A stretch of 63,903 nt of DNA, filler included, from 11 parts of 11 records of this genome joined end to end with filler, not necessarily neighbours in it, one strand, 5' to 3'. Positions 14,701-49,509 are shown, counted from the first letter of the whole stretch. Program-made: numbers and translations. The notes: a model not told the origin generated them from the sequence alone.

Positions 14701-15570
14701 GACGGCATCGATGCTGGACACCGTCGACCAGGTCTTCGCTGAGTCGCCGCCCATTTTAGCGGGCGTGGCTTTCACCGTCGTGTTCGTCGTGGCAGGTCTG
14801 GCGTTTCGATCGTTGTTGATCCCACTACGCCTGCTCGGGACGGTCCTTGTAACGCTGACGATCACTGCTGGCTCGACGGTTCTTGTCTTCATCACAATTC
14901 TCGGCCTCGATGGCATCTATTGGTTTGGTGCGCGTCTTTGTCTGACGCATCGCCTTTGCTGCATTCTCACTTGACTACGGCCTGTTCGTGTTGACCCGCT
15001 AGTACCAATATGTGCGTCCAGTCTGGTAGTCGGCCTGACAGTACGTACTCGATTCAATACTTGTCAAATGCGTAGAGAGTTGAATTGCAGCAATTTTAGT
15101 AGCTCAGCTGTGACGTTTATACGAATGTTGTTGACTGGAGCAGGTAGACTACGATGTCTTCCTGATCTCTCGAATTTACGAGCACCGCCACGAAGGATAT
15201 ACGACCGAGGCCTCGATCTTGCGAGCCATTGGAACCCAGTCGACTACGATCACGACAGCTGGAGTCATCATGGCAATAGCGTTTACGTCGCTTCTGATGT
15301 CTGACACATACGTGCTCAATCAGTTCGGATTTGTCCTCGTTTGTGCCTCTGTCGTGGACACGTTTATCGTACGATGCCTGCTCCAGTCAACATTTGTACA
15401 AACGTGGTGGATGAGCTGCTTCTGAATATTGCTTGTGACTGGAGCAGGTGCGCACGCTGTTCGTACCTGCGCTGATGTTTTTGGCCGTGGATGCAAACTG
15501 GTGGCCTGGTCAAATGCCACCGGCGGTTCGTGAGTCCGTGTACGAGATGGAAGGCGGCCGCCAAAGATAG
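11745..15570 (+). CDS. MMPL/RND-family membrane transporter, multi-exon (5' end uncertain)
   Basis: The spliced model gives two MMPL halves: IIAISLDYGLFMLTR..EE...AGRVVFVSG and VGLTVDYDVFLISRIYE...TITTAGVIMAIAF...DTFIVRTLFVPALM...NWWP. Inferred introns: 12211-12426, 13112-13175, ~13836-13911, ~14268-14338, 14928-15002, 15041-15143, 15369-15447. Confidence 0.85.
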
Positions 15571-15717
15571 TGGGGCGGAGCTGCTGAGGCGGAAAGGGAG
15601 TGGGTGAAATGACAATAAGCCAATGAAATGTTCATATTTGAGCGTGGCGAACGTTGCTTTACACAATCATGTTGGAAACGCCTCCGAGGCACCGCGCAGA
15701 CTTCTTAGAGACGTGTA

Positions 15718-18174
15718 CTATTTTGCGCGCTTCTTTATGGCTCTGGCTATTCTTGCTGGCTCCAACCCCTTTGCGCCAAGCTCGCGCCACATCATGCTGT
15801 CCATCTCCAACGCGAGCTCGCCGTCTACCGCCTGCTCTTGCGCTGCTGCCGCGACGTCCTTGAGATCCATCTCCGCTGAGAGCCACTCACACAGCGTGTC
15901 GCAGCTCCATGTTTCGACTGCACGTTTGCTCGATGCTTCGACTGCACGTAGGCCACATCTTGCAAAGCTCTTCATTCGGATCTGCAACTCTGGATAGCGA
16001 CTGCAGAGCCGCAATATGTCCTGAGCTCGCAGCACACCTAGTTCAGTATTAGTCGTCGCCCGGACAGTGCGGATGCGCACAGCGTTGCCGATTCCGTAGA
16101 AACCCTGACCCACCGAGTCAACTACTGCCTTTTCACCGAAGAAACCACCCCGTGTCAGATGCCCCAGCAGTTCGCAATTTTCACCTGCGGTGACCTCGAC
16201 CTCGCCATTGATAACGAAGTACATCTCGTGCCCGACATCGCCTCGTTTGAAAATGACGTGGCCAGTAACTGTAGTTGTCGAGATGATTGCGGCGCAGAGC
16301 TCAAGCACAATCTCTTTTGACAAGTGCCTGAAGAGTGGCGACCGCACAAGTATCGGCTTGTACATCTCCAAGGATAAGTCTCGCGCCAGAGCCTCTGGCA
16401 AGGTGCTGAGCACTTGCTTCTCATCAAAGTGCGTGGCCGACTGATTCTTAGCGACGAAATGCTTCATAATCCTGCGCTGTCGGTCAGCTGAGAATCGGCG
16501 GCTAGCCATCCACGCTTTCAGCTGGGCTAGTTTGATCAAGTATGCGTTTTCGCCGACCTTGGACGCGAACATCAACTGCGACATTAGCCCAGCGAGCGCC
16601 GCCTGGATCAAAATGGAGGCCCCCTCCGCAAAAACGGCAAAAGCCTTCTCACTGCCTGCAACGGCGAACGAGTCGCCCAACTTGAGAACGGTGTACATCG
16701 CGTGCGCATATCTGTTCGCTATCGATACATCGGGACATTGTGGGCACTGGTCCGAGCTGGTCCAGAGCAAACGCTGGACCCACCCAAGCTCACTGCTGGC
16801 GCCCAGAATGTACCATATGCACGCTAGGATGTGCGCAGCATAGGCTATCACAGCGAAGGTTAGGAAGCTGGACATGCGCATTCGCCACTCGTCGAAGTTA
16901 TCGAAACGGCTGAGCACCTTGACAATTCTAGTAGCCCGCATCATCTTCATCAAACGAGTCAGCCTGATTGCCTTGACAGCTATGCCAGCGTCTGAGTTGG
17001 CCTCCGAGTCCAGTACGTAGGCGACCAGGTTGAACGGTATCGCACTGAAGAAATCGGGAACAAACCAGCCTCGCAAGTACTGCACCGCCAACGCCTTCGG
17101 GTCTTGCTCCAGGTCTCCGAGGTCGGTTATTTTGGCCGTCCGGAAATTCAAGACAATATCGACGCAGAAGACAAGATCGACGCCCACATCCAGCCAGAAA
17201 GCCCAGGTGCCTGCATCTGGGAAGTAGTTGAAGCAAATCCGAAAGGGCACCACGATCACAGTGTAGAGGATGGCAATGACCGAGATGATGTCTGTCACTC
17301 TCACAAAGTTACTGTTAGGATGCCTCATGTACCGATGCTCGATCAGCTGAATCTCGCGGGCCACTTTGCCTGTTGTGGCGCCTGGGTACAAGTCGCCCAG
17401 CCTGCCCCATAGATGAGCCGTAGCGTGAGACATCTGCACGATCCGGGAGTGCAAGAACTTCCACCGCTCCCGCGAGTTCTCTGGATGGTGAGTGCCACCA
17501 GGAAACTTCTTTCCTCTCTTGATCCCATCTATGCTGCTCGCTAGTGAGCGCCCGGTCCCCTCTGACAGCTCGTCTATTCTTGTGACCATTGACTCTGGCA
17601 GCACCGGCGCAGCGCCATGCATGTCACCAGTGCGCTGTCTCCACCAAAACTCAAACGCGTCCCAACATACTACCGTCTTGCGCCCAAATCCCACATCTTC
17701 TGAGAAGACATCGCTCGTCGAGAGTCGTTCACGCGCGTTTGACGCTCGTTGTTCTGTAACAAAGCTCACGGCATTGCTGACAGACATGTTCAAGAGACTC
17801 TTCGCCATCTTTTCGAAGTCATCGTCAAGATTAAATGGAGGCACGAGCTCAATCTGAGGGAAACGCTTCATCATTTGTTCAAACAGCACGCCCAATTCCT
17901 TCTTGGTCAGCGAGTCTGACTTGTCTTCATCCGCCAGGTCAAACAATTGCCTTGCCATCCGGCGGGCGGCACGGATGTCGCTCTTGAGGAGGTTCGCGAA
18001 CCAGCCTTCGAAGGCGTTGAAAGAGATGGCGCCTGTGTTGCCATCATCGAGACTGACGAACTGCTCCTCGATCTCGTGCGGCTTCATCCGGATCTGCTTG
18101 CCGTACAGCTCCTTGCGCTTGGTGCACAGCACAATCCTGCGGCGCGGGTCGCACACGGGCAGGTGAGCGTGCAC
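15718..18174 (-). CDS. KCNH/HCN/CNG-like voltage-sensor cation channel with N-terminal EF-hands, CNBD and C-terminal SAM domain (5' partial)
   Basis: EF-hand loops DDGNTGAISFNAF and DEDKSDSLTKKEL. S1-S3 motifs include YLRGWFVPDFFSAIPF; S4 is IRLTRLMKMMRATRI. CNBD motifs: GDVGHEMYFV, FFGE, RTVRA. SAM: WSCDTLCEWL...VDGE...ELG. Confidence 0.88.
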   Translation of the reverse strand: MHAHLPVCDPRRRIVLCTKRKELYGKQIRMKPHEIEEQFVSLDDGNTGAISFNAFEGWFANLLKSDIRAARRMARQLFDLADEDKSDSLTKKELGVLFEQMMKRFPQIELVPPFNLDDDFEKMAKSLLNMSVSNAVSFVTEQRASNARERLSTSDVFSEDVGFGRKTVVCWDAFEFWWRQRTGDMHGAAPVLPESMVTRIDELSEGTGRSLASSIDGIKRGKKFPGGTHHPENSRERWKFLHSRIVQMSHATAHLWGRLGDLYPGATTGKVAREIQLIEHRYMRHPNSNFVRVTDIISVIAILYTVIVVPFRICFNYFPDAGTWAFWLDVGVDLVFCVDIVLNFRTAKITDLGDLEQDPKALAVQYLRGWFVPDFFSAIPFNLVAYVLDSEANSDAGIAVKAIRLTRLMKMMRATRIVKVLSRFDNFDEWRMRMSSFLTFAVIAYAAHILACIWYILGASSELGWVQRLLWTSSDQCPQCPDVSIANRYAHAMYTVLKLGDSFAVAGSEKAFAVFAEGASILIQAALAGLMSQLMFASKVGENAYLIKLAQLKAWMASRRFSADRQRRIMKHFVAKNQSATHFDEKQVLSTLPEALARDLSLEMYKPILVRSPLFRHLSKEIVLELCAAIISTTTVTGHVIFKRGDVGHEMYFVINGEVEVTAGENCELLGHLTRGGFFGEKAVVDSVGQGFYGIGNAVRIRTVRATTNTELGVLRAQDILRLCSRYPELQIRMKSFARCGLRAVEASSKRAVETWSCDTLCEWLSAEMDLKDVAAAAQEQAVDGELALEMDSMMWRELGAKGLEPARIARAIKKRAK

Positions 18175-18601
18175 GAGGGTGCACGAGGGTGCACGAGGNN
18201 NNNNNNNNNNNNNNNNNNNNNNNNNNNNNNNNNNNNNNNNNNTTAATTAATTAANNNNNNNNNNNNNNNNNNNNNNNNNNNNNNNNNNNNNNNNNNNNGC
18301 GTGACACTGGGCATAAGGCCCTTATGCCTGGTGTCAGAACCCCTCGTGGAGCGGGCGCGTACGAAACCTCAGCACCAACCTGGGTGCAGATCTGTTTTGA
18401 CTTTGCCTTCCACATGAATAGCTTGATCCGGGCCACCACCACTAGTGAGAGCAGCGACGACCTCATAAAGGTTGCCAGATCAATGTCAACTCGCTATTGC
18501 TTGCTAGATAGTGTGAGAAGAATATACTAGCTCTCGCAGCTCAGAGAAGACAGAACCAGTTGGACAAGCTTAATGCACCGCAAAACAGTCTTCATTGAGC
18601 A

Positions 18602-19624
18602 TTAGAGTTCGCCGCTTTCCTGATACTTGCCGTGATTCCAGACTCCTTTGTTCACGCTCCCATCCAGACCTGTTACTTGCCCACTCCCTGCCACCAATCA
18701 TTATGCAATGCGGAAGTCCATGGTCAGTGTACAGCTCTGGGACAATCAAATCCCCAGCATGGCAATCAAATTGCATTGTGCTAACCGTGCTTGTTGCCAT
18801 CCTGCCAGCTACCGACGTAAATGCGACCCTTGGCGTCTACGTGCGTGCCATGGCCGTTGTGTTTTCCGTTCTCCCACTCTCCTTCGTAATGCCCACCCTT
18901 TGGGTAAGTGTATCGACCCTTCCCGTTCCTTTTGCCCTGCGGATCCAGTGGCAATCCGAGAGATTCAAGTAATGAACAGTATGATGCTGCGGGTTGCACC
19001 CGGGTCAGAGAGAGTGCTGGCGGTCTCCAGCTGGAGCTGGACGCACATTACGCATCTCGCCGACGTACGTCGCGCCATCCGCCCACGTATAGGTCACCTG
19101 CCCATGGTACTGCCCGTTCTGCGACTCGCCAACCACCGTGCTGCCATCCGGCCTGCGCCCAAAGAATGCGACACGATCGCAGAAGCGCGGCATATAGTAC
19201 ATCAGTTCAGCCCGAATCTGAGATTCACAGCACCTGCTGGGCATGTATAGGAAACTGCAAGTGGCGGTGCGCGCGTAGGGGAGGGGGGGGGAGCCGCAGG
19301 AATACAGCGCAGACTGTCGACGAACCACGTGTATGTGCCGTTGCCGTGTGGTTTGCTGTCTTTCCACTCTCCATCGTACACGCCACCACTTGGGTAAGTG
19401 TACTTGCCCATTCCTTCCCTCTCGTCGTTCTTCCACTGTCCGTCGTAGTACGAGCCATCCTTCCACGTGTAGCGGCCTGTGCCGTGCTTCTCCCCTGCCT
19501 CGTTCTGATCGCCGCGATACACCGCTCCGTCTTCGTGAGTCAGGGTAGCGTCCGTTCGCTTAACCCGCGCGACGGCCAGCGGCGCCAGCAGCGCGGCCGT
19601 CACTAGCACGAGCAACGAAGACAT
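18602..19624 (-). CDS. MORN-repeat protein with signal peptide, 4 exons, C-terminus SGEL
   Basis: Repeats of Y.G.W......G.G.YT...G and an N-terminal MSSLLVLVTAALLAPLAVA. Inferred introns: ~19153-19325, ~18937-19046, 18688-18785. Confidence 0.85.
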
Positions 19625-20515
19625 CAACGCTCTTGCGCAAGCTTCCTCCTGCAGTCGCAGCAGGGAGCGGGTGCGAGCGAGCCAGCGCCGCAGCTAGAGC
19701 GCGCTTCGTGTGTACAGACCGCCCACGCAGTCACGACCTTGCAGCGCCGCTGGTGCTCACTGATGGAGCTGGCCAAGATGCAGCAGCGATCGCACCGGCG
19801 GCGCACATGCACCGGCCGGGCTCCGCGCTCCGCGGTACCGCGATACGGCGCGGCCGCGCGGGGCGTATTACGCATTTGTCTAAAAAGAGCCCCGTACTTT
19901 TGGGAGTTGAGATTAGAAAGTGTATTCGGCAATTGCGAGTTGAGAACTGTTGGAGTGGTATAATAGTGCGGGACCGGCTGTAAAGGTGTTTGTAAACTGT
20001 AATCGTGTTTGTAATGAACGGCAAAAGAGAAAAGTTGTACGGGTACTAGGAATTCCTAGTAGTTCGGACAAAGTTCCATCCCATGGGATTTCTACTACGG
20101 TATGAATAAACAAGCGCCGGAGTTAATAGTACGGATAGTACGGTTTAGCGAATTTCACTCGCTCCGCCGCGCCCGCGCCGCGCCGCCGCGGTACAGCCAC
20201 CGCGTAGCTCGATAGCGCGTGCACTGGCAGGCGAGTGCAGTGTACACGCGAGAGTACATACGTAGCGGACACCGTATCTAGGATACCGTCTCTACTACTG
20301 TATAGTACGTGGTCGACCACGCGGTGTACACACACCGTACTTCCCGCTACGATACTGGGTACGTACGGGCGAGAGGCCGCGGCGCGTGGCACTGGCCGAC
20401 TGGCGACACTCGCGTTCACGCACGCACCACGCACGCACGCAACGCGCGTTTGTGGGTGGGCAGCTGCAGCCGCGCTGGTTGGCTGCAAGGAGCAGCACTC
20501 GATCGTGCGTGTCCG

Positions 20516-21558
20516 ATGGCGGTTACGCGGTCGGCAGCATCCATCCGGCTGTACCACTGCCCCGGCGCTCGCTCGCTTCGCGTGCTCTGGGCGATGCGAG
20601 AGCTTCGCCTGGTGGATTATGAGCTGATCACGATGCCGTTTCCACCTCGATTCACATTGAAGCAGTACCCACTCCAGCTGCGACTGATTTTATCTCTTGA
20701 TCACTGATCAATTTCGTATCTGATCAGTATTCTGTACTGCGGTGGCTGATCAAGGCGCGTATTGGTCGGAGCAGGTACATAGGTGTGAACCGTCTTGGAA
20801 CCATCCCGTACATGACGGACACGGACAATCCCACACTGGGAATGACGGAAAGCTGTGCCGCGCCGGTGTACCTGGCAGGTATTTGCCGAGCCCTCAATTC
20901 TGAAAGTCCAGCGAAAGAACCATACTTTGCTGACATCTCGGTCTATTGTCGCAGAGAAATATGGCTCGCCTGATTCACAGGCTGAATTGGTGGTGCAACC
21001 GTCCGAGAGCGACTATGGAAGCTACCTTAACTGGCTGTTCCATGCCGACGTCAGTGTGCAACCACGACACGCACGCGCACGCAGTCAACCAGGCCACCCA
21101 TAAGCCAACAGAGCAAGCCACTCGCTCGCTCACGCGTGGCAGACCAGGTTGCGCTCACACCTGACTTGTCACAGGCCACACTCACCTTCCCACAGACGAT
21201 ATTGTTGCGCTACGGTCAGCAAGAACCAGAAAAGGGGCTGCAGCAGGCAGGAGAAGACTACGGAAAGTGGTACATAGCTCGCCTACGTATGCTGGACGGC
21301 ACGTTAGAAGACGGGCGAGAATTTCTCTGCGCAGGGCGATTTACGCTGGCCGACATCTGCATTACCTATGCGCTGTTCCTTGGAACCACTCTAGGTTTGG
21401 ACGAACGCTACAAGCCACAGACCGCTGCATATCTGGAGCGTATGATGCGTAGGCCAGCCTTCGTTGCAGCGCGGGAGGAGGAGAGAGAGAATCTCGCGTC
21501 AAAGGCCTATGAAACAGATCCTTGCTTGCAGCCGCTTGGTGCCTCGCCAAAACTGTGA
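20516..21558 (+). CDS. Glutathione S-transferase, multi-exon
   Basis: LYHCPGARSLRVLW, VNRLGTIP, MTESCA, FLCAGRFTLADI, YLERMMRRPAF. First intron 20665-20774. Confidence 0.9.
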
Positions 21559-21648
21559 GAATCTGCAGTGCCACAGTCAGCTACATTCGGCAGCGCTACA
21601 TGATTCAATGAAATTAGCTCGCTTTGCCGTGAGCCCGGGTGACGATGC

Positions 21649-22446
21649 TTAGGCATTGAAAGAGGCTTGCGCGGCTAGCAGCCGGACCGCCTCGAGTGCC
21701 GCGGCACCACCCGCGTGCTTCGTTCGTGGCACGACATGCCCACCACCATGCTCGACAACCTTTGCTGCTCCGGCCGCCCAGAGCTGCGCCAGCTGCTCTG
21801 TACCTTGGCGCTCGAAGTCCCAGCCCTTGCCGTACAAGAGGGTTGCAGGCAGCCGAAGCGGCGCGGCAGCAGTCATCTGGGATTTCAGCAAGGGATCCGC
21901 GGGGCAGAACCCAGACATAACCAGCGCAAATCGGAGAGAGGGGAGGGGTGCCGCCGCTGCCGCTGATGCTTGAGAGCAGAGCAACGACGCTAAGGCACCC
22001 CCTTGGCTGAAGCCTACGACGCCTTCGAACGGGCCGTGCATCTGTTCATAATCACGGATGTAATCCAGTGTCGTTTCAGCGCCAGCATACTTCCCGTCCG
22101 CGCCCTTGTCCCACCACTCGTAGTATGGCCCGCCGGGCCAGGCGTTCTGGACGGCATCCTGCGCGGGACCAGACGCAGGGTGCGGCGCGTCCGGGAAGCG
22201 CAGGTCGAGCGCTGGACCCACAGCTGCCTCCAGCGCGGAGCTCACCTGCTCCGGTTGAAATGATCACCTTGAGCAGCGGCCAAAGCAGGACATCGTGGCG
22301 ATGCGAACTGATCATGTGCGGACGTGCTCAAGAGAGAGCGATTTGAGTACAATGGCCACTGTGCGGGAGCATACAGGTACCTCGAGCATCTGTTCACGCA
22401 GGATGGCCCCGCTGGTACGGTGCCCATGCAGACACAGGATGCGCAT
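21649..22446 (-). CDS. FSH1/OVCA2-family serine hydrolase, 2 exons
   Basis: MRILCLHGHRTSG, then intron 22246-22380, then GPFEGVVGFSQGG (nucleophile motif) and HGGGHVVP. Confidence 0.9.
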
Positions 22447-23196
22447 TTGTGGTCCACGCGGCGCAAAGCGCAACGATGACTGTCTTACATCGCACGAAGT
22501 CGATTACAGACCCACACGGTCGCGATCCACGAAGCGTCTGCGAGCCAGCGAGCTCTGTATATTGCAGTATGGTACGGCTCTAGCTACTACGTCGACTCGA
22601 GTTGACACTCAACACTAAGCTCTAGGTAACTCTGAATCACCATTCGGCACGCGCACGCGCGCGCGCGCGCGCGCAAACAGACCCGGCGCTAAGGACCCGA
22701 TGTTCAAATCCCGACCAGGGTCAAGTGCCCAGGTNNNNNNNNNNNNNNNNNNNNNNNNNNNNNNNNNNNNNNNNNNNNTTAATTAATTAANNNNNNNNNN
22801 NNNNNNNNNNNNNNNNNNNNNNNNNNNNNNNNNNACACCCCCTGATGAGGTTTGGCGAAGGTACAGAGTCCTCTGCCCACCCCTTCCATGTGAACGGGAG
22901 AGCAGCCCCCCATCGCGAGCTCCCTGCTCACCGCTGATCGGAACGCTCGGTCAGAATCAAGATCGATTATGCCCGGATCCGTTGTATTTTGAAAAGCCAC
23001 GGTATATTGAGTATAATGCAATTTGCCTACTGACTGATGTTGATCAACGGAGGATAATCCTGAATTTTGGCTGCGGAGAATGATCAGTTTGACGTTTGAG
23101 CGAATAAACAGCAGGGTCAGATTCTCACTGGTAAATACAAAGCCACAATTGATCAGATTTCGACTCGGATAGAAAAAAAATGTTTCCTTCTCATTC

Positions 23197-25607: not shown

Positions 25608-25731
25608 TGATAATATTGTGGGACTGTTGACTGCGACACCACACACTGGAAAGCAAGTGGCTGACTGGCTGGCTGACTGACTGAGTTAGTGATGCTCATG
25701 TAGAAACGCACTCACCGTACATTTGCCATCG

Positions 25732-28164: not shown

Positions 28165-31100
28165 GTCGACATGAAACCGTACTCGACGCCGCCTCGCACA
28201 TTGCGTTTGTTCTTATTGGTGAAGGCCTTTGGGAGCTTCATTCCGCTGATGCCCCTGTAAACTTCAATTGCAGGCTGCAGCTTCGCAAGTTTGAGCACTC
28301 CTGAATTGAGCACGTGCAGGGTCGTAGTAAAGCGTCCTCGGACATCCTGCCCTGCACCGACCAGCGCATACGAGGGTATGATACCTCTTGCTTCCTTGTT
28401 GCCGTATGCACGAAGCAGACCGTTGTATATCTCGAACATAGGACCTGTATAGAGGCGAAGAGCAATCACCTCCTCGACACGTAACCCAATTTCGAGTATA
28501 TCATCAGGAGTGATGACAGTACTGAAACGTCTGTTGGCGAACGACTTGGTTATCAGCGGTGCCGCTTCCTTCAGCAGCTTCTCGGCCGGTATCTTGACTC
28601 GGTTGCCGCGGCTGCGTCCGGTCTCACGGTCAATCCCGGCGTCCATATCGCCGACTACAGCTGGGGCGACGACGAAGAGCCATTCTTGTCTTGGAGTGGA
28701 TGTCACTCGGTAGCTTGAAGTCACAAATGTGTCGTCAGACGCACCATATCCGGTGGCAACAGCGCAGTGTTCCTCTTCCATCGCTGCCATGAGGTCCTTT
28801 CGGCACTCTCCGATCATCTTCTCGAGTCCTCCAAAGTAGTCCGATAGGTCAGCGAAAGTGCCTTCAAATCCTCCAGTAAACTTATCGTAGAAATCATCTG
28901 CGGGCGAATCGTCTTTGCCTGTTGCTTCACCTACATCTACGCTACTGGCATCAAGGCTTGCTCCGCCAGGAATAAAGGATTCCTTTGCGCCTTGCACCTG
29001 TGCAACAACCGCAGTCACAGCTTGATTGTCTTCCGTGCCCGAATATGCCTCCTTAGTGACAGCGATTTGGACGGATCCCGAGCCCCTGTTCTTGGCTGTC
29101 CACTGTGTGCCGTCCAAGACCCGCGCAAAGTCTGCGCTTGCAACTTCCATCCGCATCGTCTCTAGATATGCCTTCATGGTCTCGACATCTTCTTCCGTCT
29201 CCAACCCAACGATGCAGCGATCAAAAGCATTCCTCGATGGATTATCGGCCTGGCCGAGCACGTAATGGACGTGCCTGACCTTTGTCACCACCGCTACAAC
29301 GAAGGACACCGGGACCATCAAGATGAAAGTAGCCAAGAGCGTCCAGTCGTATGCAGTTTCGCCCATCACCTCCCTGGTCAGATTGATCTTTTGCAGCGTA
29401 AGCGCGCTAACGATCACAACAAATACATGACACTCGGTGATTGCCCGGAACACATTATCCTCCGAAATCTTGTACGGGCACACTTTGACTTGCAGCGCGA
29501 AGAATCCAAAAGACAAGAAGAGCGCAGCGTTCAACTGAGCGACACTTCCTCGCCCAACGAGCAGTACAAGTCCCACCAACGCCAATTTGCGGAGCATGTC
29601 CAGTGCTTCCCAGTATAAATACGCTGGTACGTACGCATCCATCAGGAAACTGTAGTCCTCTCCGATCGTAATGTCGCGGATGACGAACGAGGCCTGCTTC
29701 TCATCTACCTTCAGGTCTTCGGCAACCTTCTTCGCCAGCGCCACGTTCGAGCCTTCAGTGTCGCGCTGGTAGATGCTGGCCTTTCGAATCAGGATGTAAC
29801 CAAACGCAAGCGGCAGGCCGCAAGCAACCATAACCACAACGATGGATGAGAGCACCTGGATAACGATGTGCCGTGGCTCCTCACACAGGACGCTGTCATC
29901 CGATTCAAGAACGCTGTCGGTGGGCGTCAATGATCGACAGATGAATGCCGCAAAGGCCACGTTGCAGATCGTCGGGTAACACTGTCGATGCGAGGCAAGC
30001 ACTTCAGACATGTCCACTCGGACGGAGCACTGAAGAGGGGGAGACTCACGAAAAACAGTGCAAAGAATCCGTTGCCTTTGGCGTGACTCTTAGCCTTGTC
30101 CCGGCTGCTGCCTGTCTCGAAACAGTAGACGATTGCGACGACCAGCGAGAGTACAAACGGCAGCACGACGACTCGCAGCGTCCACTTGCTAGTGAAGCCG
30201 ATGAGGCCGAAGCATTCGCTGCTACCCAGCGCTCGGAATAGCAGCCCCCATACCTGTGAGGGCACCACAAATGTTTTCAGACGGGGCACATCTGGGATCA
30301 ATACGTCAAACAATCACTCTAGAGATCTCCAAATTTCATCAGATTGCTAGGGGACGGGAGCATACGTCCATAACAGGTCGAACGGCATCGACGACTGCCT
30401 CAAATGCAGGCGGATACTGGAACGAGAGCACGTCACCCAGCTGAGAAGTCACTTGGGCGTAGGTGATGACGATTCTCATCGGCTGGAAGGCGCATCGCAC
30501 AGCCAGCTTGAAAGGAAACTTGCGCCAGTACTTGATTCCTATGCCGACCACCAGTGTCATAACCACGATGATTGCCAGGAGTGTGAGCAGCGACTTGGTG
30601 GTGAAGCCTGTTCCAGCACACGGTTCGCAGAGCCGCGATGGCATCATTCCATAGCCATCGGCACACGTCTGACACAGATAGCCTTGATAGCCAAGACTGC
30701 ACTCCCCTGGCGTGGATGGATGTGCTGGACAACGAATGATCGCGAGATCGAATTCGTCATGGCAGCGGAACGCAAGCTGAATCGAGCTCTCGGCTTGCTG
30801 CAGCAACGAGCGTCGAGAATCTATAGTGCCAGGCAGCTGTGGTATTGTGTAGCCCTCAGCAATGGTCGGTGCTGTTCCCTTTTCGCAATCGAAGCACGCC
30901 TGACCCAGTGCATCAGTTGGGCACTGCTCACAGACCTGCCCTGCCTCAACCTCCGAGTCGTGCTCGGCCAGAGCTGCCAGGTATTCACCCGTCTCGTATC
31001 CTCCATCGAAGCAGACGAACAGCTGCTGCGATGCGTTGTGGAAGCTGTCTGCGCAGCCGCACTCACGGTTTTGATCGCTAAACGAACCAGCAACCGCGGT

Positions 31101-40200: not shown

Positions 40201-40513
40201 TGAGATGATGCGATTGATACAGGAGCAGAAGGAAGAAATGAAATTGCTGCGTGACGAGGCCGCGGAAGCCAGGCTGCAGGCCGCGCAGGTTGAGAGAGAT
40301 GTGAAGGCGGTGACAGCATTGCAAATGCGGATTGAGGTGGTCCACACAGCTAAGCTACTCTCAGATGATGAGCGTGACGCTGTGGAGGACGCGATTGCTG
40401 ACGGTGCGGCTGAAACTGGCGAAAGTGCAATTTACCAGATGATAGCTCTCTCAGAGAAGTTCTTGGTGGATAGAGCATTTGCGCGACAATTGAGTCGAAG
40501 GTACGCTTCGTAG
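37277..40513 (+). CDS. ARM-like helical repeats + TIR domain + Pro/Ala-rich linker + coiled coil, multi-exon
   Basis: Spliced TIR: HIMLSYQWDSQSTIIRINERLLARGYLTWMDLNNMKGSIVDSMSDAIEEAAVVLYGVSLRYKESANCRLEANYA...IPLMMQNDYQPKGWLGLIMG. Introns within the TIR: 39070-39164, 39243-39310, 39410-39479, 39556-39650. Confidence 0.85.
39810..39982 (+). repeat. Coding (CCAGCT)n-like Pro-Ala low-complexity repeat
   Basis: PAPAPSPAPAPTTAPAPAPAPA in the ARM-TIR protein. Confidence 0.8.
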
Positions 40514-40767
40514 GGCCTTGGCAAAGGACAGTGCCTATGGCTAGCGATGCAAAGTGAACAACGTGTGNNNNNNNNNNNNNNNNNNNNNNNNNNNNNNNNN
40601 NNNNNNNNNNNTTAATTAATTAANNNNNNNNNNNNNNNNNNNNNNNNNNNNNNNNNNNNNNNNNNNNAGGAGAAGGTACTTACGCGCGCGCGCGCGACGA
40701 CCCGCCCCGGCCGGCCGCGCGCGGAGCTGCGTGCGTGGCGCGCGACCCGCGACGTCGGCGGTACCGA

Positions 40768-41254
40768 TTCCTCCGCATCCGTCACCGACTCCGCGAGTGG
40801 CTTCTCGCACAGCACGCTCTTCCCTGCTGCGATGGCCATCGTCGCATGCTCTTTGTGCAGTGAGGTGATCGTGCCGATGTAGACGATGTCGACGGTATCA
40901 CTCTGGACCAGCTCTGTGTAGCTCTCCAGCGCGGTTCTCACGCCGTGCTCTTCCGCAAACTCCGTCGCCGACGAGAGGGAGCGTGCGGCCACTGCCTCAA
41001 GCTCAGCACCAGGAACGTCGCGGAGGGTCTTCGCCCAATCGGAAGAGATGCCACCTTCAAACAGCGCACAGCGCACACTCTCGGATTCAATGGTGCAATT
41101 TTGCCATTCTGCAACGACAACACAAAGACTCCTGTATGAACTGTATGAAGAGTCAGACCGTACCGGTGCCGATGAAGCCCCAGCGCAGGCGGTGAGCGGT
41201 CCCAGTGGGTGTCGTGAGGCCGAGTCGCACGTCAAGCGGGACCACGTCTGCCAT
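40768..41254 (-). CDS. N-terminal half of a Gfo/Idh/MocA (DHDH-like) oxidoreductase, inverted relative to its C-terminal half
   Basis: ATG at 41254, LRWGFIGTG, one intron (~41056-41163), then GISSDWA...VAARS...DIVYIGT...H....AIAAGKSVLCEKPLAESVTDAE. Homology stops at ~40770. Confidence 0.85.
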
Positions 41255-41309
41255 ACTGCCGAGCCCTCGCTGCTCTCGTGGGGCACAGTACAGTGTAGCA
41301 AGTGTTCGC

Positions 41310-42080
41310 TACTTGTATGCCTTTGCCAAGGAGAAGAACGTCATGCTTCAGGAGGGAATGTGGACCCGGTTTTTCCCAGCAGTGGAGCACGCGAGGCTGC
41401 TCCTCGAGCAGGGAGCCATTGGCGATGTGGTCATGGCCTCTGCTGACTTTCCGGACCGCTGTTACGCGGCACAGATTTCACCGTTGGCGTTCGGTGAAGG
41501 CAATACCCCCACCAGTATCGTCGCTAGCAGTCGGCGAAGCGATGGTGCAGGTGGTGCTGTTGTACAATACGGAGAGACAGGTACCACAGTCTTGAGCTTT
41601 CCACCCTGGACAAGCGAGTTTCAGGAGGCGCTGCAGCTCACGGGAACCAAGGGGCGGATCACTCTGGATGGTTATGGTCACGCTCCCACACGCTTGAGCA
41701 TCCATCTAATCCCATCAGGCGTGCCAATTGAACCGCAAGGTCACACTTCTACTTCTCAAACAGGAGTAGATCCGGTCACACACGTGCACACGTACCCTGT
41801 TCCGTTGCCCACAGGTTATCCTGCGCCTGGCTGGCACGTGAGTACCAGACAAGCCCAAATGTTTTGTGGCTGCTACATGCACCGTATAAGACCTGCCATC
41901 CTACCTGTCTGTTTTTCACAGTACACGAACCAGACGGGCTTTATCTATCAAGCAGAGGCAGTCCACCGCTGTCTGGCAGCAGGCCTGCGCGAGTGTCCAC
42001 AGTACACGAAAGAGGATTCTTTACACGTGATGCAAATTCTCGATCAGATCAATGCTGCGGAGGCACAGGCTTCGTTGTGA
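41310..42080 (+). CDS. C-terminal half of the same Gfo/Idh/MocA oxidoreductase
   Basis: YLYAFAKEKNVMLQEGMWTRFFP...GAIGDV...GTKGRI...GFIYQAEAVHRCL..GLRECP. There is no N-terminal domain upstream on this strand. Intron ~41838-41921. Confidence 0.85.
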   Translation, partial: YLYAFAKEKNVMLQEGMWTRFFPAVEHARLLLEQGAIGDVVMASADFPDRCYAAQISPLAFGEGNTPTSIVASSRRSDGAGGAVVQYGETGTTVLSFPPWTSEFQEALQLTGTKGRITLDGYGHAPTRLSIHLIPSGVPIEPQGHTSTSQTGVDPVTHVHTYPVPLPTGYPAPGWHVSTRQAQMFCGCYMHRIRPAILPVCFSQYTNQTGFIYQAEAVHRCLAAGLRECPQYTKEDSLHVMQILDQINAAEAQASL

Positions 42081-42185
42081 AATGCGAACCAATCCAATTT
42101 AGCACAATGGATCATAATCATATGGCACGATGGTGATAATTATCCACTGAACGTCACATTTTCAGCACGAGTACATTGACAGCGT

Positions 42186-45100
42186 CTACACATCGGCTGT
42201 ACGCCTTGCTACACCAATTCGCTCGTAGAAAAGTAGTACAGCCCGTCCACCGTCTCGCCGGACGCGGTCAAACTCTTCATCTTGAGGACGCGGTGCGTCA
42301 GTGTACAGATGGTTGTCATCACACTTCACCCAGCCTCTGTCGCCACCGTCGACCCTTCGGTCCGGTGAGTGAGATCGCCCAGGCGAACCACTGCGCCCTG
42401 GGGAGCGCGAGCGGGGCGAAGATGACCGCCTCCCGCCAGGAGAGCGCGAGCGTGCTGGTGAGGATGAGCCCCGGCTGCGGCCATCATAATGACTTTCATA
42501 ATTACATGTCGAAACGAGCATTTCATAATGGATTGCGGGCGGATCGCGGTGTAGGACCGCTTTCCGTTAGCGCGCACAAAGAATCAAGTCCTAAATCAAA
42601 CAGGCGGTGGAAAGTGTTCGATCATACCGGCTTCGAGCCATGGGAGACGTGGGCCGTGCAGCACCGTTGCCACCAGCAGAGGCACGAATCGTGACGTAGT
42701 AATGTCCGCTGTGTATACTAGTGCCCCTGTGAAACACGGCCGCGACCAGGCGATATGCCACGCCACAGGGATCGCCGTGGTAGTCACGCTGTGTATCATC
42801 TTCCGGCCACATCAAACGACCTGCAACACCGCACCGTGAGTCGTCACCGCAGTGGAAATCAACATCAAAAGGAAGCAACGCTCTCGTTGAGACACATCAA
42901 GTGACGGAGCCACGACAAAGGAAGCAAACCAGTCGGAATTGTGTCTGAATGAGAATCAGGCATGGACGCCTGTCACATTGGGTTGCAGTACGCACCTGCG
43001 CCGGCTAGGTTGAGCTCATCAGGGAAATCGATCGAGGTATCGACCCGTGTCTCAGCGCCGAGAGCTGTTTGATGGGCGCGATTGAGCCGCACGATGTAGA
43101 TGCGTGGCAGTCGCACCAACGCGCTCTACAGAGAGGGTTATGAAAGAAGGCATTAGTTATGAAAGAAGGTGTTGGTCGCACCGCAATTGAATGCAGTCGT
43201 TCAACGCGCTCTATCTGCAACGATAGAGTTGTGAAAGGAGGCGATGGTCGCACCATAACGTTGGTGCTACCGATCTTCTGGCAGTGATCACATCTGTAGC
43301 CTCGAGGGCGTTCGGGAGCACCCACAGCTGCTAGCAGCTCCTCAAGGCTGCCCCTCGCTTGTCTTGCCAGTGTGTATAGGGGTAATTGTTCAATCATGAA
43401 CGGTTCAGCTGTGGACGGCGAGTACCGCTTACAGTCCAGGCACTTCTTCAGCTGCAGGCTTTGTCCCTGGAAGAACTTGCCGATGGCTGTTCGCCTAGTA
43501 CAATCTGTTGTGCTGTCCCATTGCTCGTCAGCAAATTGCCTCAGCAACTTGTTCTCCTTCGCAGGCCGACGCAAACGGACAGCTTCGTTTAGATCCTCCG
43601 TAAGTTTCTCAGTGACCCCGCGCGTGATGTTCTGTCGCGGCCTCGTCAGCATGCGACCAAGAATAGCAGAGCCATCGCCGTCCGTGTCCATGGAAAACTG
43701 GTCAAGAAGCAGGTGCAAAAATTCTCCTGCATCTTGCTGGCGCTGCTTCCTCCAGTCAGTCTCAACTATCCGCGTCGGTTCACCGGTGACTCTGCGCCTA
43801 CGTCTCTCGACCTGTCTCGCCAGATCAGTAGCTGTATTGACCTGCCAGCGAACACCGTCGCGCGCGCCCTGCAGATTCTCAATGATGTACTCTACTCTGC
43901 GCCCGCGTGTGGAGAGCGTAAACCGCGCGTCCTGGCGCCTGAGCTGGTACGCGCGCTCAATCACCTCTGCTGTGGTTTGATCGTACTCGTTGAAGCTGCC
44001 GTCGTTATCTTGCCAGCACCAGAACCAATCTTCAGTCTCTTCGCCTGGCTGTGCAGGTAGGAGCTTCAAGCACTGGTGCAAGAAGTCCTGTCGCGTGCGG
44101 TCGTCATCTTGCACTCCAGAGCCATCGTCGCGGTCCATACGTTTGAGGAGCGCCACGAATGCTGCGATCAAAGACTCTGCTGATCCACTGCCACGTGCGG
44201 GCGCAGCAACGTCCTTGAGGTGCGCGACCAGCTGCGGCATGTGGCGAAGGCACTGGACTGTTGCATTAAGGAAGCAGTAGTTCGAAGGGTTCGAGATGCC
44301 GACAAATTTCGGTGGCGGTGCTTGGCGGTGCTTCGGCGACTCGGACTCGACGGCACGCACGAGCGGTATCGGAGAGGAATGCTGCTGCACAAGCTGAACC
44401 CTTTCCACCAAATCTCTGTCGTATCCCATCGCCACCACCTGCTCAACCACGTCCTGCAACTCGAGCTGCTGTTGACGCTGCAACCGCATCTGGTCTGCCC
44501 AATCGCGCTCGGCCTGTTGTGTTCGGGCACGTTCCGCTTGTCGCGCTTGTGCGATTCGGTCCATGGTGGACCCACCGTTGTATGAAGGGGGATCACCGTA
44601 CTGTTGACGCTCGATCTGCTCGGCCCTGTCGCGCTGTGCCTGCCGAACCTTCCGCAAGTCGTCGTCGTTTGCAGTCGCCGTCCGCGCGAATTGGACGCGC
44701 CGCCGATCCTGCCGTGGCTTCTGCGGCGATATATCTCGCTCGACTAAGGCATCTAGCGAGTTATTGATGTCGCGGATGTCCCTGTACTCCGGCGCCGTAC
44801 GTTCAGTGAGTTGCAGAAGCCTCGCGAACAACGCCTTGTAGCTCTCAACTCGCCGCACGGGAGCCATGCGAAGCACATCGAAGATCTGCATCTCTGCTGA
44901 GCTCGCAGCTACCCTGGCGACTGTGTCGGTCACTTCTGGCCTGGCGAGGAGCTTGCTCGCGCTGCTGCTCTGAAGCGACTGTACATAAGGTTTGTAGCAC
45001 TTCATCTGCGGAATCAGGTTGATGAACAGGCTGCAGACGCCGCCGTGGCGTACGGCGAGCGCCGAGTTGGCGTCTGGGCACGATCCAAGCGCTTCATTCA

Positions 45101-45326
45101 GCTCGTCGTCGAAACCGTAATTGAGGGCGGCTATATCGTCAAGTCCTGGGAAAAGTGACTCCAAGTCCTCGCGCGGCAACTGCTTTCCGAGTTCCGTGCG
45201 GTAGGTCATGAGAGATTGGAGGTCCTTGTTGTACTTGTCTTCGGACCTGGTCAGTTCCCAGAGAATTTTCTCGCGTTCTGCCAATGCTGTCGCAGATTCG
45301 GGCTCGGGCTCGGGCTCGGGCTCGGG
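42186..45326 (-). CDS. RhoGEF (DH) + UBA + USP (peptidase C19) deubiquitinase with an inserted WWE domain (5' partial, multi-exon)
   Basis: DH: REKILWELTRSEDKY..DL and PVRRVESY. UBA: VVAMGYDRDLV. Cys box: GISNPSNYCFLNATVQCL. WWE: WCWQDNDGSFNEYD....IERAY. Also QQDAGEFL, His box HRGTSIHSGHYY and WVKCDD. Confidence 0.85.
45298..45326. repeat. (CTCGGG)n hexamer repeat encoding PEPEPE on the minus strand, at the contig end
   Basis: Visible tandem repeat that probably broke the assembly. Confidence 0.9.
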
Positions 45327-45427
45327 NNNNNNNNNNNNNNNNNNNNNNNNNNNNNNNNNNNNNNNNNNNNTTAATTAATTAANNNNNNNNNNNNNNNNNN
45401 NNNNNNNNNNNNNNNNNNNNNNNNNNC

Positions 45428-48400
45428 ACGACAAATTTCACCTCGCTAGACAGTATCGTAGTCGGGAAGCCTGTCACGGAGACAAACGGCGTCCCGGGAT
45501 TGGTGGTACGACAGAATGGCGACGGTCAAACTGGCGTCACCACGACCCAATGCGATGGCAAGAGGATCCGTGTTGCTTGGGAAGCCGGGGGCGACGATGC
45601 GTACCGATGTGGCCCGACGGGTGCCACGTACGACCTGCAAATCGCTAGTAGTGATCACATGCGTCTGATCCGGGTTCCTGAGGTGTCTAGCAGCCAACAG
45701 GACTCTCCGAACAGCTGCGCTTCTCACGCCGATTGCGACACTGGGTACTACTGCGATAGCACGCAGACATGTTACGGTTGCGGGTATCTTCAGGGCAAGG
45801 AGTGCGACGCTTTCGACGACGGCTGCTCTGTTGTGACAAGTGCACAGTGCGACGTGGATGGCTGCGTTGCAGGAAACTGTACACGGTTAACGTGTGCTGA
45901 AGCCGCCGCGCGCAACGACACGATGGACTGCGTGGACCCTTTAGATGATTGTGACAAAGACGCTTTGGGACAGGCGATAATCTGGGCAGTATTGTTGAGG
46001 GTGGTGGGGTTGGGAGTGCCCATTGTGGTCTTCGTGGACCCTTGGGACGGCTCCACTACACGTCTAGAAGTGGAGGTGAACAAGGAGAAGGAGGCAAACG
46101 GAGAGGATGTGTCAGATGTGTCTGAGTCAGAGGGTAGAAATCCACGATATGCGAAGTGTTTCCGGCGCGTGTGCGTTGGCTGTCCCCGGCTGAGTCCAGA
46201 CCGCAAGCCGGGTGCAAGGCAGCCAGGCAACCTCGGCTTCCTTCAGTGCCTCCGTGCCTGCCACGGTCGGCCTGAAGCTGTCTTTGACATAGCGATGCTA
46301 GTATGTGATGAGGACCAGGCGCGGGTTGCTTTATCGCAAGGGCTGGACGTACACACAGACGTCCTAGGGGCGCCGAAAATGGGAAAGCACATGAACAGAG
46401 CTCTGGCCATGATGTGGGTGCTGGTTTCGTTGGGCCTTGGGCTATTTCTGTTGATCGCTGGTATTGGAGTTGCTGTCCTTTTCATGCAGCTGCTGGCAGA
46501 GAATTGTGAAAAGTGCAGCAATCGTAGGAACAAGACTGAAAAGGGAGATGAAACCAAGCTTGATGACTCAGCATACGAGTTTAACGGGCAGCTAGGCACG
46601 GCGCGACCTGCAAATTTCGTTTTGCCTCCCAACACAGCGTCACCGCTCGTCCTTGCGGTGCTCGGAAGCCGTGAGCTGTTCGAAGCTGTTCTGGATATAG
46701 GAGGAGGTGCATTCAAGAGCGTGGAGCAGCAGCAAGCTGCACTACGGCTGGCGCTGCTGACGGATCGCCGAGAAACAGCGCGCCTAATCGTTGCGTCAGG
46801 TCAGCCTGGCATCGAAGCTGTAGATGCGCAGGGCCGCACAGTCCTACAGTACCTCGCGTCACAGCTTGTGAATGATGAGCCAGATGCAATGCTATCGTTT
46901 TGCAGAGGCCAAGGCATCAATCGAGCTGATTTTGCGCACCGCACCCGCACGGACGGGGCATGGGGTCGTCGCGTACAGCGCGCAATGCAGCTTGCGCTCG
47001 ATCTCGGCGCGGATCCTCGCGGCATGGACCCCGATGGCAAAACCCCACTTTACTGTGCGGTGCAGAACGCTTCATCCTGTGGAGAAGCCAGCCTGGATCT
47101 CTCTGTTTGCAGTGCGCTGCTCGAGCATGGAGCAGACCTTCATGCCGAAGTGAATGGGGACGCAGGATCGCACACTACTCCTGCGGCTATCGCCAGCAAC
47201 AGTGAAATCGCCACGCTGCGCGAGTGGTCACGGACGACAGGAAGCTACGCCGGCCGCTTTCGACTTCTAGACCAGCTCCATCAGTCAGAGACATGCGTTG
47301 TCTTCAAGGGCGTCGACCTCGAGCGTCGGCGTCCCCACGATGCAGTAGCCGTGAAGATCATGAGAAAGGAAACTGAATGGAACCGGGAAGTCTCAGCCAG
47401 GCAAGATTTCCATCTTGATGAGCGCCACGTGGTCGGAGTTCGAGAAGCGATGCGGGTCGATTCAGCGGAAAGGCGGAGAAGGATCCGTAGGCAAGGTACC
47501 CAAGGTTTGGTGGAATATCAAAGCGACGATGTGTGTGAATTTCTGCTCGCAATGCCATTAGGTGAGTGCAGCCTATTCGACGCGATTAGTACCGAGCGCA
47601 AGGTTGGCAGGAACGTGGAGTGGGTGAGGCTGGCCGCAACACACATGGGACAGTGTCTACAGCACTTGCACCAGCAGGGGGTGGTCCACAGCGACGTAAA
47701 GCCCCGTAACTTCTGCCGCTTCAAAGACGACAACGGCAGCCGCTTGTGTCTTATCGACATGGATGCTGCGTCACGAATTGGCGGAAGAATGCCAGAGTGG
47801 GGTGCTGGTCTCAAGGCATCGACCGCGTATGCTCCGCCGGAGCTCGTGACACACATTCTTTTGGGCACCACTGAGCCGCCAATCTCAGCGACGTCGATCG
47901 ACAGCTGGAGCTTCGGTTGCGTACTCTACGAGCTTGCTGCTGGTCTGCCTCTGTTCAACGCCGATCGTTCTGACGACAACCTCAACGATGCGACCAGCAA
48001 GATTGAGCTGTTGAATTGGCGGACTATCGACAATACGCGGCTTGCGAGAGTCTTTGCCGAGTGTCCTGCATGTACGGACGCGCAGCGCTCAGCCGTACAG
48101 AACCTGATTGCCTGGTGCCTCCAGGCCGATGCATCGCTGCGGCCCTCGATGGAACAGGTGTTGGGCCATCGTTTCATCTCAATCGATGCACCGACTCCTG
48201 CACCGGTGCCTTCGGCAAGTCATTTCTTCCTCTCGCACTTCCAGAAAGAGGCTGCAGACCTCGTGCGGAGTCTTTATCTTATGCTCAAAGAGTGTGGGTG
48301 TTCGTGCTGGTTGGATATGGAGGCTGACAATCTCACGCTCGAAGGCATGCGCAACGGCGTGGAGACGTCGCAATGCTTCATGCTTGTGCTGACGCACGGT

Positions 48401-49509
48401 GTGCTCTTTCGTCCATATTGTATCGAAGAGATCTTTGTGGCAGCCAAACTCGAGAAGGACGTCGTGCTCGTGTGTGAAACTGAGGCGCGCTTCCATGCTT
48501 TCAATTACGACGAGTGGAGCTCTGAGTGCAAGACGAGCAAGCAGTATGCGTGGTGCCTGGCCGAGCTGGCGAAGGTCGAGGGCCGTGGCGAGGCGGCGGC
48601 CGCTCACATGATGGAGACTGTCGCATGCATGATTGACTCGAACAAGGAGCACATGATCCCGTACCGTCGACGGAACTTTGAGTCCAACGCGATGATTGCG
48701 GCGATCCTGGCGAGGAACGGTCTGCACAGCATCTCTAGTCTATCGTCTCCCGACGACCTGTTGCGCGTACAGAGCGTTCCTGTTGGTGGGCTTACACATC
48801 AGGTGTCTCCATATGCGCGTGTACCAAGTGCTCCAGCCTCACTAGCAGCTCAAAGTGTTTATGTAGCGATTGTCCATTCAACTCCGGCCGGTGATGAAGC
48901 AGCAGCGAGCTTGCGCCATTCACTGCGGGGTCGTGGGCTGTCTGTCGGTGGCGTGGACGCGGCCAGGAAGGCGCGGCGACTGCTCATCGTCCTGACTGAT
49001 GGGTCCCTAAAAGACCCGGCGGTACATACTCCGTCAGCTGTTGGTATTTACGCAGTCAGGGACAACGTCGCGCACATTTGGCAAGTTTCTGTCTTTTTGT
49101 CGCTGCAACGATTGCTGTCACTGGAGCAGGTACTCGCGCACTTGCGAAACGCGGTACGCCAGGAGGGCCTCAGTCGCCAGCGTTCGGTCGCCGAGGTACG
49201 GCTTTCAAATTTGCAAACAAATGTGCTAATTCACCGAAGTTATCCCCAGACTGAAATTTTGAAATCATTTCGGAATGGTGTGATGTTCAGAAGGACATTG
49301 ACCTGGAGGTAGTGTCGTGCAATTGGTCGTTCGGTTCTGAAGAGCAAGCACAGGCATGCGACGACCCGGCGATCGCGCGAGTGTTCCAGCACCAGGAATT
49401 CTTGGCGTTCCGTCCAGCAGGTAGTAATCTGAACCACGAACACGAGGCGATGTCGGATGAGATTGTGCGTCGATACGCAGCGCGAGATGCACTGGGTGTA
49501 GGTAGATAG
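45428..49509 (+). CDS. Membrane protein: Mib/Herc2-like and Cys-rich N-terminus, TM segments, ankyrin repeats, protein kinase, TIR domain (5' partial)
   Basis: IRVAWEAG...YRCG..GATYDL; two hydrophobic stretches; GKTPLYCAV..LLEHGAD; kinase motifs VAVKIM, HSDVKPRN, LIDMD, AYAPPE and DSWSFG; TIR FFLSHFQ...WLDM...EGMRNGV...FRPYCIEEI. Introns near 49022-49129 and 49197-49308. Confidence 0.85.

Follow-up and report, generated by a model that had tools for sequence, protein, structure and literature searches.

Five introns in a picozoan-like genome carry the same ends, and with moderate confidence we read them as diverged copies of one small non-autonomous DNA element, of miniature inverted-repeat transposable element (MITE) or foldback type and about 80–135 bp in length. 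They were located in a 63,903 nt stretch of DNA, hereafter the window, which comprises 11 contigs of 3.8–11.6 kb each with N spacers between them and has a GC content of 0.57. An initial annotation of the window had reported that each of these introns starts with GTAC, ends with GGAGCAG and is followed by an exonic GT. Inspection of the sequence upheld these features together with the coordinates, and Pfam profiles and the N spacers bore out that the introns lie in four unrelated host genes on three of the 11 contigs. The five introns are numbered 1 to 5 in the order of the family members in Table 1. The set is probably an introner family, i.e. a family of intron-generating DNA elements, of the kind present in Symbiodinium, Polarella and Aureococcus, in a Picozoa-like genome.

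A distinct subset of introns

Ends of 12 nt are common to the five introns in the four genes. The motif GGAGCAGGT was found five times in the window, against 0.76 matches expected, a count that none of 100 shuffles reached, and all five matches are 3′ ends of introns. The shorter GGAGCAG occurred 25 times on the two strands of the window, and GT comes next in just the five family ends, the other 20 being without GT. The 3′ end of the family can also be written CTGGAGCAG^GT, or (T)GACTGGAGCAG^GT, the caret marking the splice junction.

The control set consisted of 16 other predicted introns, two of them homologue-backed (14928-15002 and 49196-49290) and 14 predicted by reading frame only, from codon log-odds segments and enumerated frame-compatible GT-AG pairs with boundaries chosen by eye. 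The GGAGCAG 3′ end was present in 5/5 family introns versus 0/16 controls, so that the GGAGCAG^GT introns form a distinct subset, and the ending is, among the introns of the window, more than the mere 3′ splice consensus. The downstream exon begins with GT in 5/5 versus 3/16, and the GTAC donor was found in 5/5 versus 4/16. At the 5′ side, the window contains GTACNNACTC four times, where 1.05 matches would be expected (a single shuffle in 100 gave four). All four are placed at predicted intron starts, three in the family and the fourth in the predicted intron 55058..55164.

Table 1. Positions of the intron family, of the repeat arms of member 2 and of candidate relatives in the window (a caret marks the splice junction).
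Feature	Position	Strand	Description	Ends or sequence
Family member 1	15041..15143	+	103 nt, phase 0, MMPL/RND-type transporter gene	GTACGTACTCGATTCA...TTGACTGGAGCAG^GTAG
Family member 2	15369..15447	+	79 nt, phase 0, same MMPL-type transporter gene as member 1	
Member 2 repeat, left arm	15377..15389	+	perfect 13-bp terminal inverted repeat	CCTGCTCCAGTCA
Member 2 repeat, right arm	15436..15448	+	final base = first exon base	TGACTGGAGCAGG
Family member 3	20665..20774	+	110 nt, phase 2, near 5′ end of GST gene (GST_C downstream)	GTACCCACTCCAGC...GGTCGGAGCAG^GTAC
Family member 4	22246..22380	-	135 nt, phase 0, FSH1 serine-hydrolase gene	GTACCTGTATGCTCCCGC...CAACCGGAGCAG^GTGA
Family member 5	49022..49129	+	108 nt, phase 0, in frame, stop-free, kinase/TIR-domain gene	GTACATACTCCGTC...GTCACTGGAGCAG^GTAC
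Candidate relative, 5′ arm only	55058..55164	-	predicted 107-nt intron (frames only)	starts GTACACACTCCGAA, ends GGTTGTAG^ATAC
Candidate relative, 5′ arm only	30254..30365	-	predicted 112-nt intron (frames only)	starts GTATGCTCCCG

Intron status and splicing

For four of the five, the intron status was confirmed at the protein-sequence level by the continuity of a Pfam profile or of homologues. The MMPL profile covers positions 90–197 in the exon before intron 1 and 216–290 in the exon between introns 1 and 2, and homologues are continuous across both sites. In the case of intron 4, the FSH1 profile is split into positions 4–24 in the upstream exon and 25–206 in the downstream exon, and for intron 5 exactly its 36 codons are missing from the relatives P0227, P0255 and P0261, with no other gap. 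Support for intron 3 comes from the reading frame alone. At all four sites tested (introns 1, 2, 4 and 5) the junctions are seamless, as had been proposed, with no residue gained or lost in comparison with relatives.

Evidence from reads and RNA covers contig 11696-18198 only, i.e. introns 1 and 2 of the family. Intron 1 is spliced in RNA: a contig of metatranscriptome X16 links 15040 to 15144 and skips 103 nt with GT..AG ends. The DNA runs X1 and X2 held no contig joining across the family introns of this contig. In run X1 (DNA), an 8-nt insertion, TGAATTCA, was observed at 15432 within intron 2 with a depth share of 4.66 of 10.7, which indicates that intron 2 is present and variable in natural populations.

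Paired ends and interior homology

The perfect 13-bp inverted repeat reported for intron 2 was verified at both arms. The ends of all copies were compared without gaps, the first 20 intron bases being set against the reverse complement of the last 16 intron and four exon bases. Copies 1, 3 and 5 matched at 13, 12 and 11 of 20 positions, respectively, against 4–9 of 20 in the 16 controls, in which the longest perfect end run was 3–6 nt; the ends of copy 4 match only if a gap is allowed. Terminal inverted repeats, by which DNA transposons of this type and MITEs are recognised, are thus perfect in copy 2 and exceed the controls in copies 1, 3 and 5. The degenerate 5′ reverse complement described in the initial annotation proved real, albeit weak in each copy and in need of an offset in copies 2 and 4.

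The two ends pair with each other in the minimum-energy folds of 5/5 family introns, with a fold z of -3.4 for intron 2 and -2.4 for intron 3. The ends of two control introns were unpaired when folded, and those of the candidate at 55058 were partly paired. The hairpin signal is peculiar to the family and does not characterise the genome as a whole. Moreover, internal palindromes are present in 4/5 copies, as in foldback elements.

For comparison of the interiors, each copy was trimmed by 18 nt at its 5′ side and by 14 nt at its 3′ side. A local score of 18 was obtained for intron 1 aligned with reverse-complemented intron 2, with a shuffle mean of 6.8 and 0/200 shuffles reaching 18, and intron 3 against intron 4 gave a score of 14 over their 3′ portions, reached by 2/200 shuffles. 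Scores of at least 14 were obtained in 2/20 family comparisons versus 0/360 control comparisons, the control maximum being 13. The score of 11 for intron 1 versus reverse-complemented intron 5 was not above controls, as 11/360 control scores were 11 or higher.

When reverse-complemented, intron 2 aligns to both ends of intron 1 and to a 45-nt interior block, with 43/55 intron-1 positions identical, and lacks about 20–45 nt beside the left arm relative to intron 1. Judged by this alignment, intron 2 is a shortened, opposite-orientation copy of intron 1, placed 225 bp downstream in the same gene. It aligns to intron 1 solely as the reverse complement, and this one pair is the instance of copies in both orientations. 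Sharing of sequence between introns at non-homologous positions, as expected of introners, was thus found, at a similarity far weaker than in published families.

Empty sites in relatives

Single exons or unspliced frames of the window were used as queries against proteins from metagenome contigs, which represent unspliced reading frames; a frame running through a site therefore means that no intron is there, provided that the contig is DNA. All four testable sites (introns 1, 2, 4 and 5) were found empty in relatives of 54–87% protein identity, in agreement with the expectation that orthologues would lack these intron positions.

Intron 4 is kept in relatives of at least 90% identity and is absent at 84% or less. 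The protein P0065 (92%) begins at the first codon of exon 2, and P0066, P0238, P0239 (90%), P0233 (the entry named Picozoa sp. COSAG02) and P0258 enter from the 3′ end of the intron, reading ..LLEQ^VSS or ..SSEQ^VIA, which equals ..GAGCAG^GT. The site is unbroken in P0242 (84% cluster, 19.4-kb contig, read-through upstream) and also in P0067, P0068, P0069, P0070/P0250 (6.9-kb contig), P0071 and P0074. The site of intron 5 is empty in P0227, P0255 (8.4-kb contig), P0257 and P0261.

The 3′ end of intron 1 is kept in P0082 (87%, 3-kb contig), in which ..KLTGAGRLR equals the window's +1-frame translation of ..TGACTGGAGCAGGTAGACTACG, and its site is unbroken (GLT^VDYD) in P0091/P0097/P0107/P0251, P0153/P0253 and P0215/P0254 (82–85%). 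The relatives without intron 1 mostly break off elsewhere, which points to unspliced DNA with introns at other positions. In the MMPL relatives P0251, P0091/P0097/P0107, P0153, P0123 and P0125 (71–82%), breaks or in-frame insertions were observed at positions other than those of the window introns; intron positions of the MMPL gene, as read from these frames, vary among closely related lineages.

The site of intron 2 is unbroken in P0082 and in 16 other relatives reaching it, among 24 listed. Intron 2 looks younger, since it is missing from P0082, the sole relative sharing intron 1, and the absence of the perfect-repeat copy from the closest relative agrees with a decay of the repeat over time. 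The old burst suggested earlier for the whole family consequently applies in part: intron 4 is common to relatives of at least 90% identity, and intron 2 with its perfect repeat appears to be of later date.

Proposed mechanism of intron gain

The proposal of an inverted-repeat element family that gives rise to introns drew support from the interior homology, from the paired ends in 5/5 copies and from 4/4 empty sites; a target-site duplication (TSD) of the 4-bp length ascribed to it is a possibility. The termini of the element would be roughly CTGCTCCAGTCA...TGACTGGAGCAG, as terminal inverted repeats. Insertion would take place into coding DNA directly 5′ of a GT; two copies have a full GTAC there, which may have arisen by target duplication. 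On the upstream flank, GT(AC) would become the 5′ splice site and the terminal CAG of the downstream repeat arm the 3′ splice site, with TGAC just 5′ of the acceptor end perhaps serving as the branch site. Paired ends would bring both splice sites together, and the element would be removed by splicing with the mRNA unchanged. As the same repeat stands at both ends, an intron would result from either orientation, and intron 2 would represent an internally deleted copy in the orientation opposite to intron 1. The putative parts of this scheme are mobility by means of a transposase, the precise target and the length of its duplication, the role of TGAC in branching, and the presence of many further copies in the genome.

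It is conceivable, though doubtful, that a foldback introner acting in both orientations is active now, or was recently, in Picozoa, that its repeat carries both the branch site and the acceptor, and that it hops locally, intron 2 having been born from intron 1 after the split from the 87% relative. If this were true, intron gain would be traceable between natural picozoan lineages in ocean metagenomes.

Opposing evidence and alternative explanations

Several observations weigh against descent of these introns from a mobile element. The family numbers only five copies on 63 kb, the window holds no copy outside genes and no longer element, and Pfam searches of 17 long ORFs (open reading frames) of the 63-kb window found no transposase. 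A metagenome scan with the 15-mer of the family 3′ end returned at least 119 loci of mixed composition and random appearance, with none convincingly related among the matches listed; one of these, L086, has a short TTGTACAAACGT stretch in common with intron 2 and no further support. The window's own contigs were absent among the metagenome matches listed, and the scan thus says nothing on copy number. On viral contigs there were no matches to the perfect repeat pair with arm spacings of 30–60 nt and 61–91 nt. The GTAC donor, present also in 4/16 other predicted introns, is partly a general preference. Copies 2 and 4 have five and about four extra bases, respectively, between GTAC and the repeat, and the interior similarity exceeds controls in 2/10 pairs, the other eight sharing ends only. 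A blind scan for GT...AG segments of 60–200 nt with at least 11 of 16 complementary end bases was not enriched (27 versus a mean of 24.25 in 20 shuffles). Splicing in RNA, which was borne out by the joint of intron 1, did not extend to a second X16 RNA contig that crosses 15369-15447 unspliced; this contig could be DNA carry-over, pre-mRNA or a result of poor splicing.

The comparison with relatives is open to the same kind of objection. Many of the homologue contigs may be of either DNA or RNA origin, a caveat to the empty-site test. Two introns outside the family (14928-15002 and 49196-49290) are lacking in the same relatives as well, so the absence is not family-specific and intron turnover is general in the group; absence through intron loss is possible. 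Moreover, the orthologue of intron 4 in P0233 begins with Val-Gly, which means that its start is not GTAC.

The initial annotation had further postulated a 4-bp TSD at GTNN targets, which the junction bases do not establish. The exon bases after introns 1–5 are GTAG, GTGC, GTAC, GTGA and GTAC, in which the invariant part is GT only (5/5): the third exon base matches the intron A in 3/5 copies and the fourth matches C in 3/5. The intron side is always GTAC, so there is no locus-specific variation. Because GTAC is palindromic, a duplicated target is indistinguishable from an extended inverted repeat, and GTAC+CTGCTCC...GGAGCAG+GTAC is readable as a single long inverted repeat. The Asp codon of a DYD motif begins with the fourth exon base after intron 1, a G, and this residue is D in 22/22 covering homologues among those listed; given this invariance, the target there was GTAG-like and cannot have been GTAC. 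At the sites of introns 1, 4 and 5, the nearest relatives that lack the intron have Val (GTN) directly behind the junction. Judged from these bases, a 4-bp TSD is possible, and a shorter duplication, or a preference for insertion before GT, would account for the data equally well.

Copying without a transposase, in which double-strand breaks are repaired with filler copied in either orientation from nearby or existing intron sequence and fillers with a usable acceptor and foldback are retained, is an unlikely source of the family. Such copying has counterparts in the window, since intron 14928-15002 reproduces 13138-13210 at 90% identity over 73 nt and ectopic copying thus does make introns here. 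Intron 2 as an inverted partial copy of intron 1, merely 225 bp off, suits this explanation as well, and the similarity extends some bases past the element into the flank (TACGAT). Against it stand the identical 12-nt ends on three contigs and in four genes, and the 3′ region common to copies 3 and 4, which occupy separate genes of a single contig, one on each strand. In 4/4 tested, exact ends and seamless junctions were seen, and recopying with fixed ends would in effect be a mobile element. Selection offers another route, rather improbable in our judgement, by which unrelated introns converged under demands for an extended 3′ motif (TGAC branch site plus GGAGCAG) and for end pairing, making the family a class of splice signal. 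GGAGCAG is preserved in the orthologues of introns 4 and 1 (87–90% relatives) while adjacent intron sequence has changed, TGAC/CTAAC-like motifs lie near the acceptor in other predicted introns as well, and GTAC donors are found outside the family. Against this stands the lack of the GGAGCAG end in every one of the 16 controls; a splice signal has no need for the exonic GT, yet this is constant in the family and occasional elsewhere (3/16). The interior homology, above all in reverse complement, would be left unexplained, and so would the finding that the youngest copy has the best repeat.

Spread through RNA, as proposed for fungal introner-like elements, would involve reverse splicing into another transcript and subsequent DNA copying. 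The seamless junctions and the placement of every copy in a gene, in spliceable form, are consistent with it; however, the homology between introns 1 and 2 runs in reverse complement, with both on the same strand of one gene, and reverse splicing of the sense strand would not yield such a pair. This argues against RNA-mediated spread, for which the terminal inverted repeats and the invariant downstream GT are likewise unexpected, and we regard it as highly improbable. Chance likeness of a few short introns is the least credible of the explanations. The sample is small, each terminal repeat apart from that of copy 2 is weak alone, and the blind scan for end complementarity was unenriched, but the 0/100 shuffles for the 3′ motif, the standing of the family above controls in both end and interior tests, and the placement of 4/4 GTACNNACTC matches at predicted intron starts speak against coincidence. 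Descent from a small inverted-repeat DNA element is the explanation that we retain.

Candidate relatives and other introns in the window

Two predicted introns resemble the family in the 5′ arm only (Table 1). The start of the one at 30254..30365 is the same 11-mer, GTATGCTCCCG, as bases 7–17 of member 4 (two exact matches in the window); the intron is followed by exonic GTAT, identical to its own first four bases, and its ends are unpaired. At 30254-30264 (-) and 56775-56785 (-), predicted introns share the terminal 11-mer TGCCCTCACAG, again with two exact matches, the remainder being unaligned; the match may be fortuitous or mark a second terminal motif. The predicted intron 56775-56980 (-) contains tandem GAATCTGCTTG-like units.

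Upstream of the GST start codon, the 137-nt segment 20359-20495 (+) starts with GTACGTACGGG (cf. GTACGTACTCG in intron 1) and ends with AAGGAGCAG^CA. Perhaps a decayed copy within the 5′ untranslated region, it is GC-rich, is not followed by GT and has no other support. Intron 49196-49290 (+), located 66 nt past intron 5, starts with GTACGGC and ends with GATGTTCAG^AA, without the 3′ motif of the family, and is also missing from P0227 and P0255; it is not among the introns named in the initial annotation.

Two candidates were rejected. The segment 19234-19379 (-), GTACGATGG...CAGCAG^GTGC, was excluded as its GTAC falls within coding sequence, which we take to be MORN-repeat-like. The segment 50787-50868, ending in GACTGGTTGCAG, was not counted, having a GTAAGT donor and unpaired ends.

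Host genome and other repeats

The host was treated as a picozoan or a very close relative, on the basis of the names under which near-identical proteins are recorded. One close relative of the window FSH1 protein belongs to a 90% cluster that includes the EukProt entry Picozoa sp. COSAG02, the cluster of another relative includes COSAG04, and the window's own FSH1 protein is recorded with EukProt as its source. Picozoa are plastid-lacking relatives of red algae, which are uncultured and known almost entirely via single-cell and metagenome assemblies. ORFs in the window reach 3521 codons and introns are few. The identified sets of eukaryotic Pfam domains were WSC with laminin-G; kinase, TIR with ankyrin; RhoGEF, UCH with WWE; MMPL; FSH1; and GST_C. 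An Rfam scan of the window returned no RNA family. Parts of contig 11696-18198 were present in DNA runs of 15 marine or seawater metagenome studies.

The same contig contains a 73-nt direct repeat of 90% identity, 13138-13210 and 14927-14999 (+), with a spacing of 1789, which joins the halves of the MMPL gene. The first copy constitutes the 3′ part of the predicted intron 13112-13175 together with exon coding for SLDYGLFMLTR, and the second, which terminates at a stop codon directly after ..LTR, is nearly the whole of intron 14928-15002. By its sequence, this intron seems to have arisen as an ectopic copy from within the gene itself, and relatives without it read GIYWF^VPICA. A 17-nt perfect repeat, 11835-11851 and 13623-13639, has a spacing of also ~1788 nt. 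Contigs of DNA and RNA runs displayed either a joint from 11862 to 13606 or one from 13593 to 13650, the latter with 56 nt (13594-13649) swapped for five other letters. These joints look like repeat-driven assembly ambiguity or population variants, and an intron was ruled out by the ends GG..GC. At the extreme end of the contig, 18165-18198, there are three 10-nt tandem units, GAGGGTGCAC-like.

Comparison with known introners

For bursts of intron gain, introners are the source with the best support, with known cases in dinoflagellates, pelagophytes, prasinophytes, some fungi and a few other lineages. Confirmation of the present family genome-wide would extend introners to a new deep lineage, and would show that intron positions differ among picozoan lineages that are 82–90% identical in protein. 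The mechanism has already been described elsewhere in known introners, and the advance is in that respect incremental. No report of introners in Picozoa was found in the literature searched, with the limit that supplements to the bioRxiv papers and to PMC12130899 may list such genomes. The words "intron" and "transpos" are absent from the picozoan single-cell genome paper (PMC8599508), and "Picozoa" is absent from the part of the incomplete PMC9860276 supplement that was searched.

Inverted repeats ending at the 3′ splice site have been described (bioRxiv 10.1101/2020.10.14.339549; PMC9860276). In Symbiodinium, introns have inverted repeats that reach to the 3′ splice site, and 4-nt direct repeats lie on either side, the 5′ splice site being one of the two (bioRxiv 10.1101/2020.10.14.339549; PMC9860276, Fig. 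2B legend), and classes 4 and 5 of Polarella glacialis follow the same pattern with a TSD of GHNN and in one orientation (bioRxiv 10.1101/2020.10.14.339549). The present family resembles these in the repeat that ends at the 3′ splice site, in the short target starting with G (GHNN there), in the unchanged mRNA, and in its short, non-autonomous copies. It differs in that the Symbiodinium and Polarella families have a single orientation and a TSD demonstrated on hundreds to thousands of copies, whereas here there are five copies with one opposite pair and an unproven TSD; the host is, moreover, not a dinoflagellate, and all splice sites are canonical GT-AG.

Polarella classes 6, 8 and 10 and Aureococcus anophagefferens have 8-nt duplications and occur in both orientations (bioRxiv 10.1101/2020.10.14.339549). 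Like these, the present copies appear as DNA elements with inverted repeats that supply one splice site and take the other from the target, in either orientation; the 8-nt length of the duplications sets those families apart. According to the Fig. 2 legend of PMC9860276, certain Aureococcus copies lengthen the transcript by 12 nt, whereas the four junctions tested here are seamless.

Introner elements of Amoebophrya (PMC7789003) are likewise joined at their ends by a hairpin (repeats of 8–20 nt there), are without an internal transposase and reside in a marine protist, with direct repeats of 3–5 nt at the boundaries. Amoebophrya introns are mostly non-canonical and lack a family-specific repeat motif (PMC7789003), in contrast to the GT-AG borders throughout and the one specific terminal motif observed here. 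With the introners of Micromonas and the introner-like elements of fungi, the family shares the occurrence of similar introns at unrelated positions and recent gain (PMC9860276). The fungal families are without inverted repeats or target duplications, and Micromonas pusilla has families with and without them (PMC9860276). Micromonas and fungal copies are alike over their full length, whereas here most pairs are alike at the ends only. The present family is far more diverged than the published ones, and a pipeline based on similarity clustering would probably miss it. Among these systems, as far as its sequences indicate, it combines a short target starting with GT with action in both orientations.

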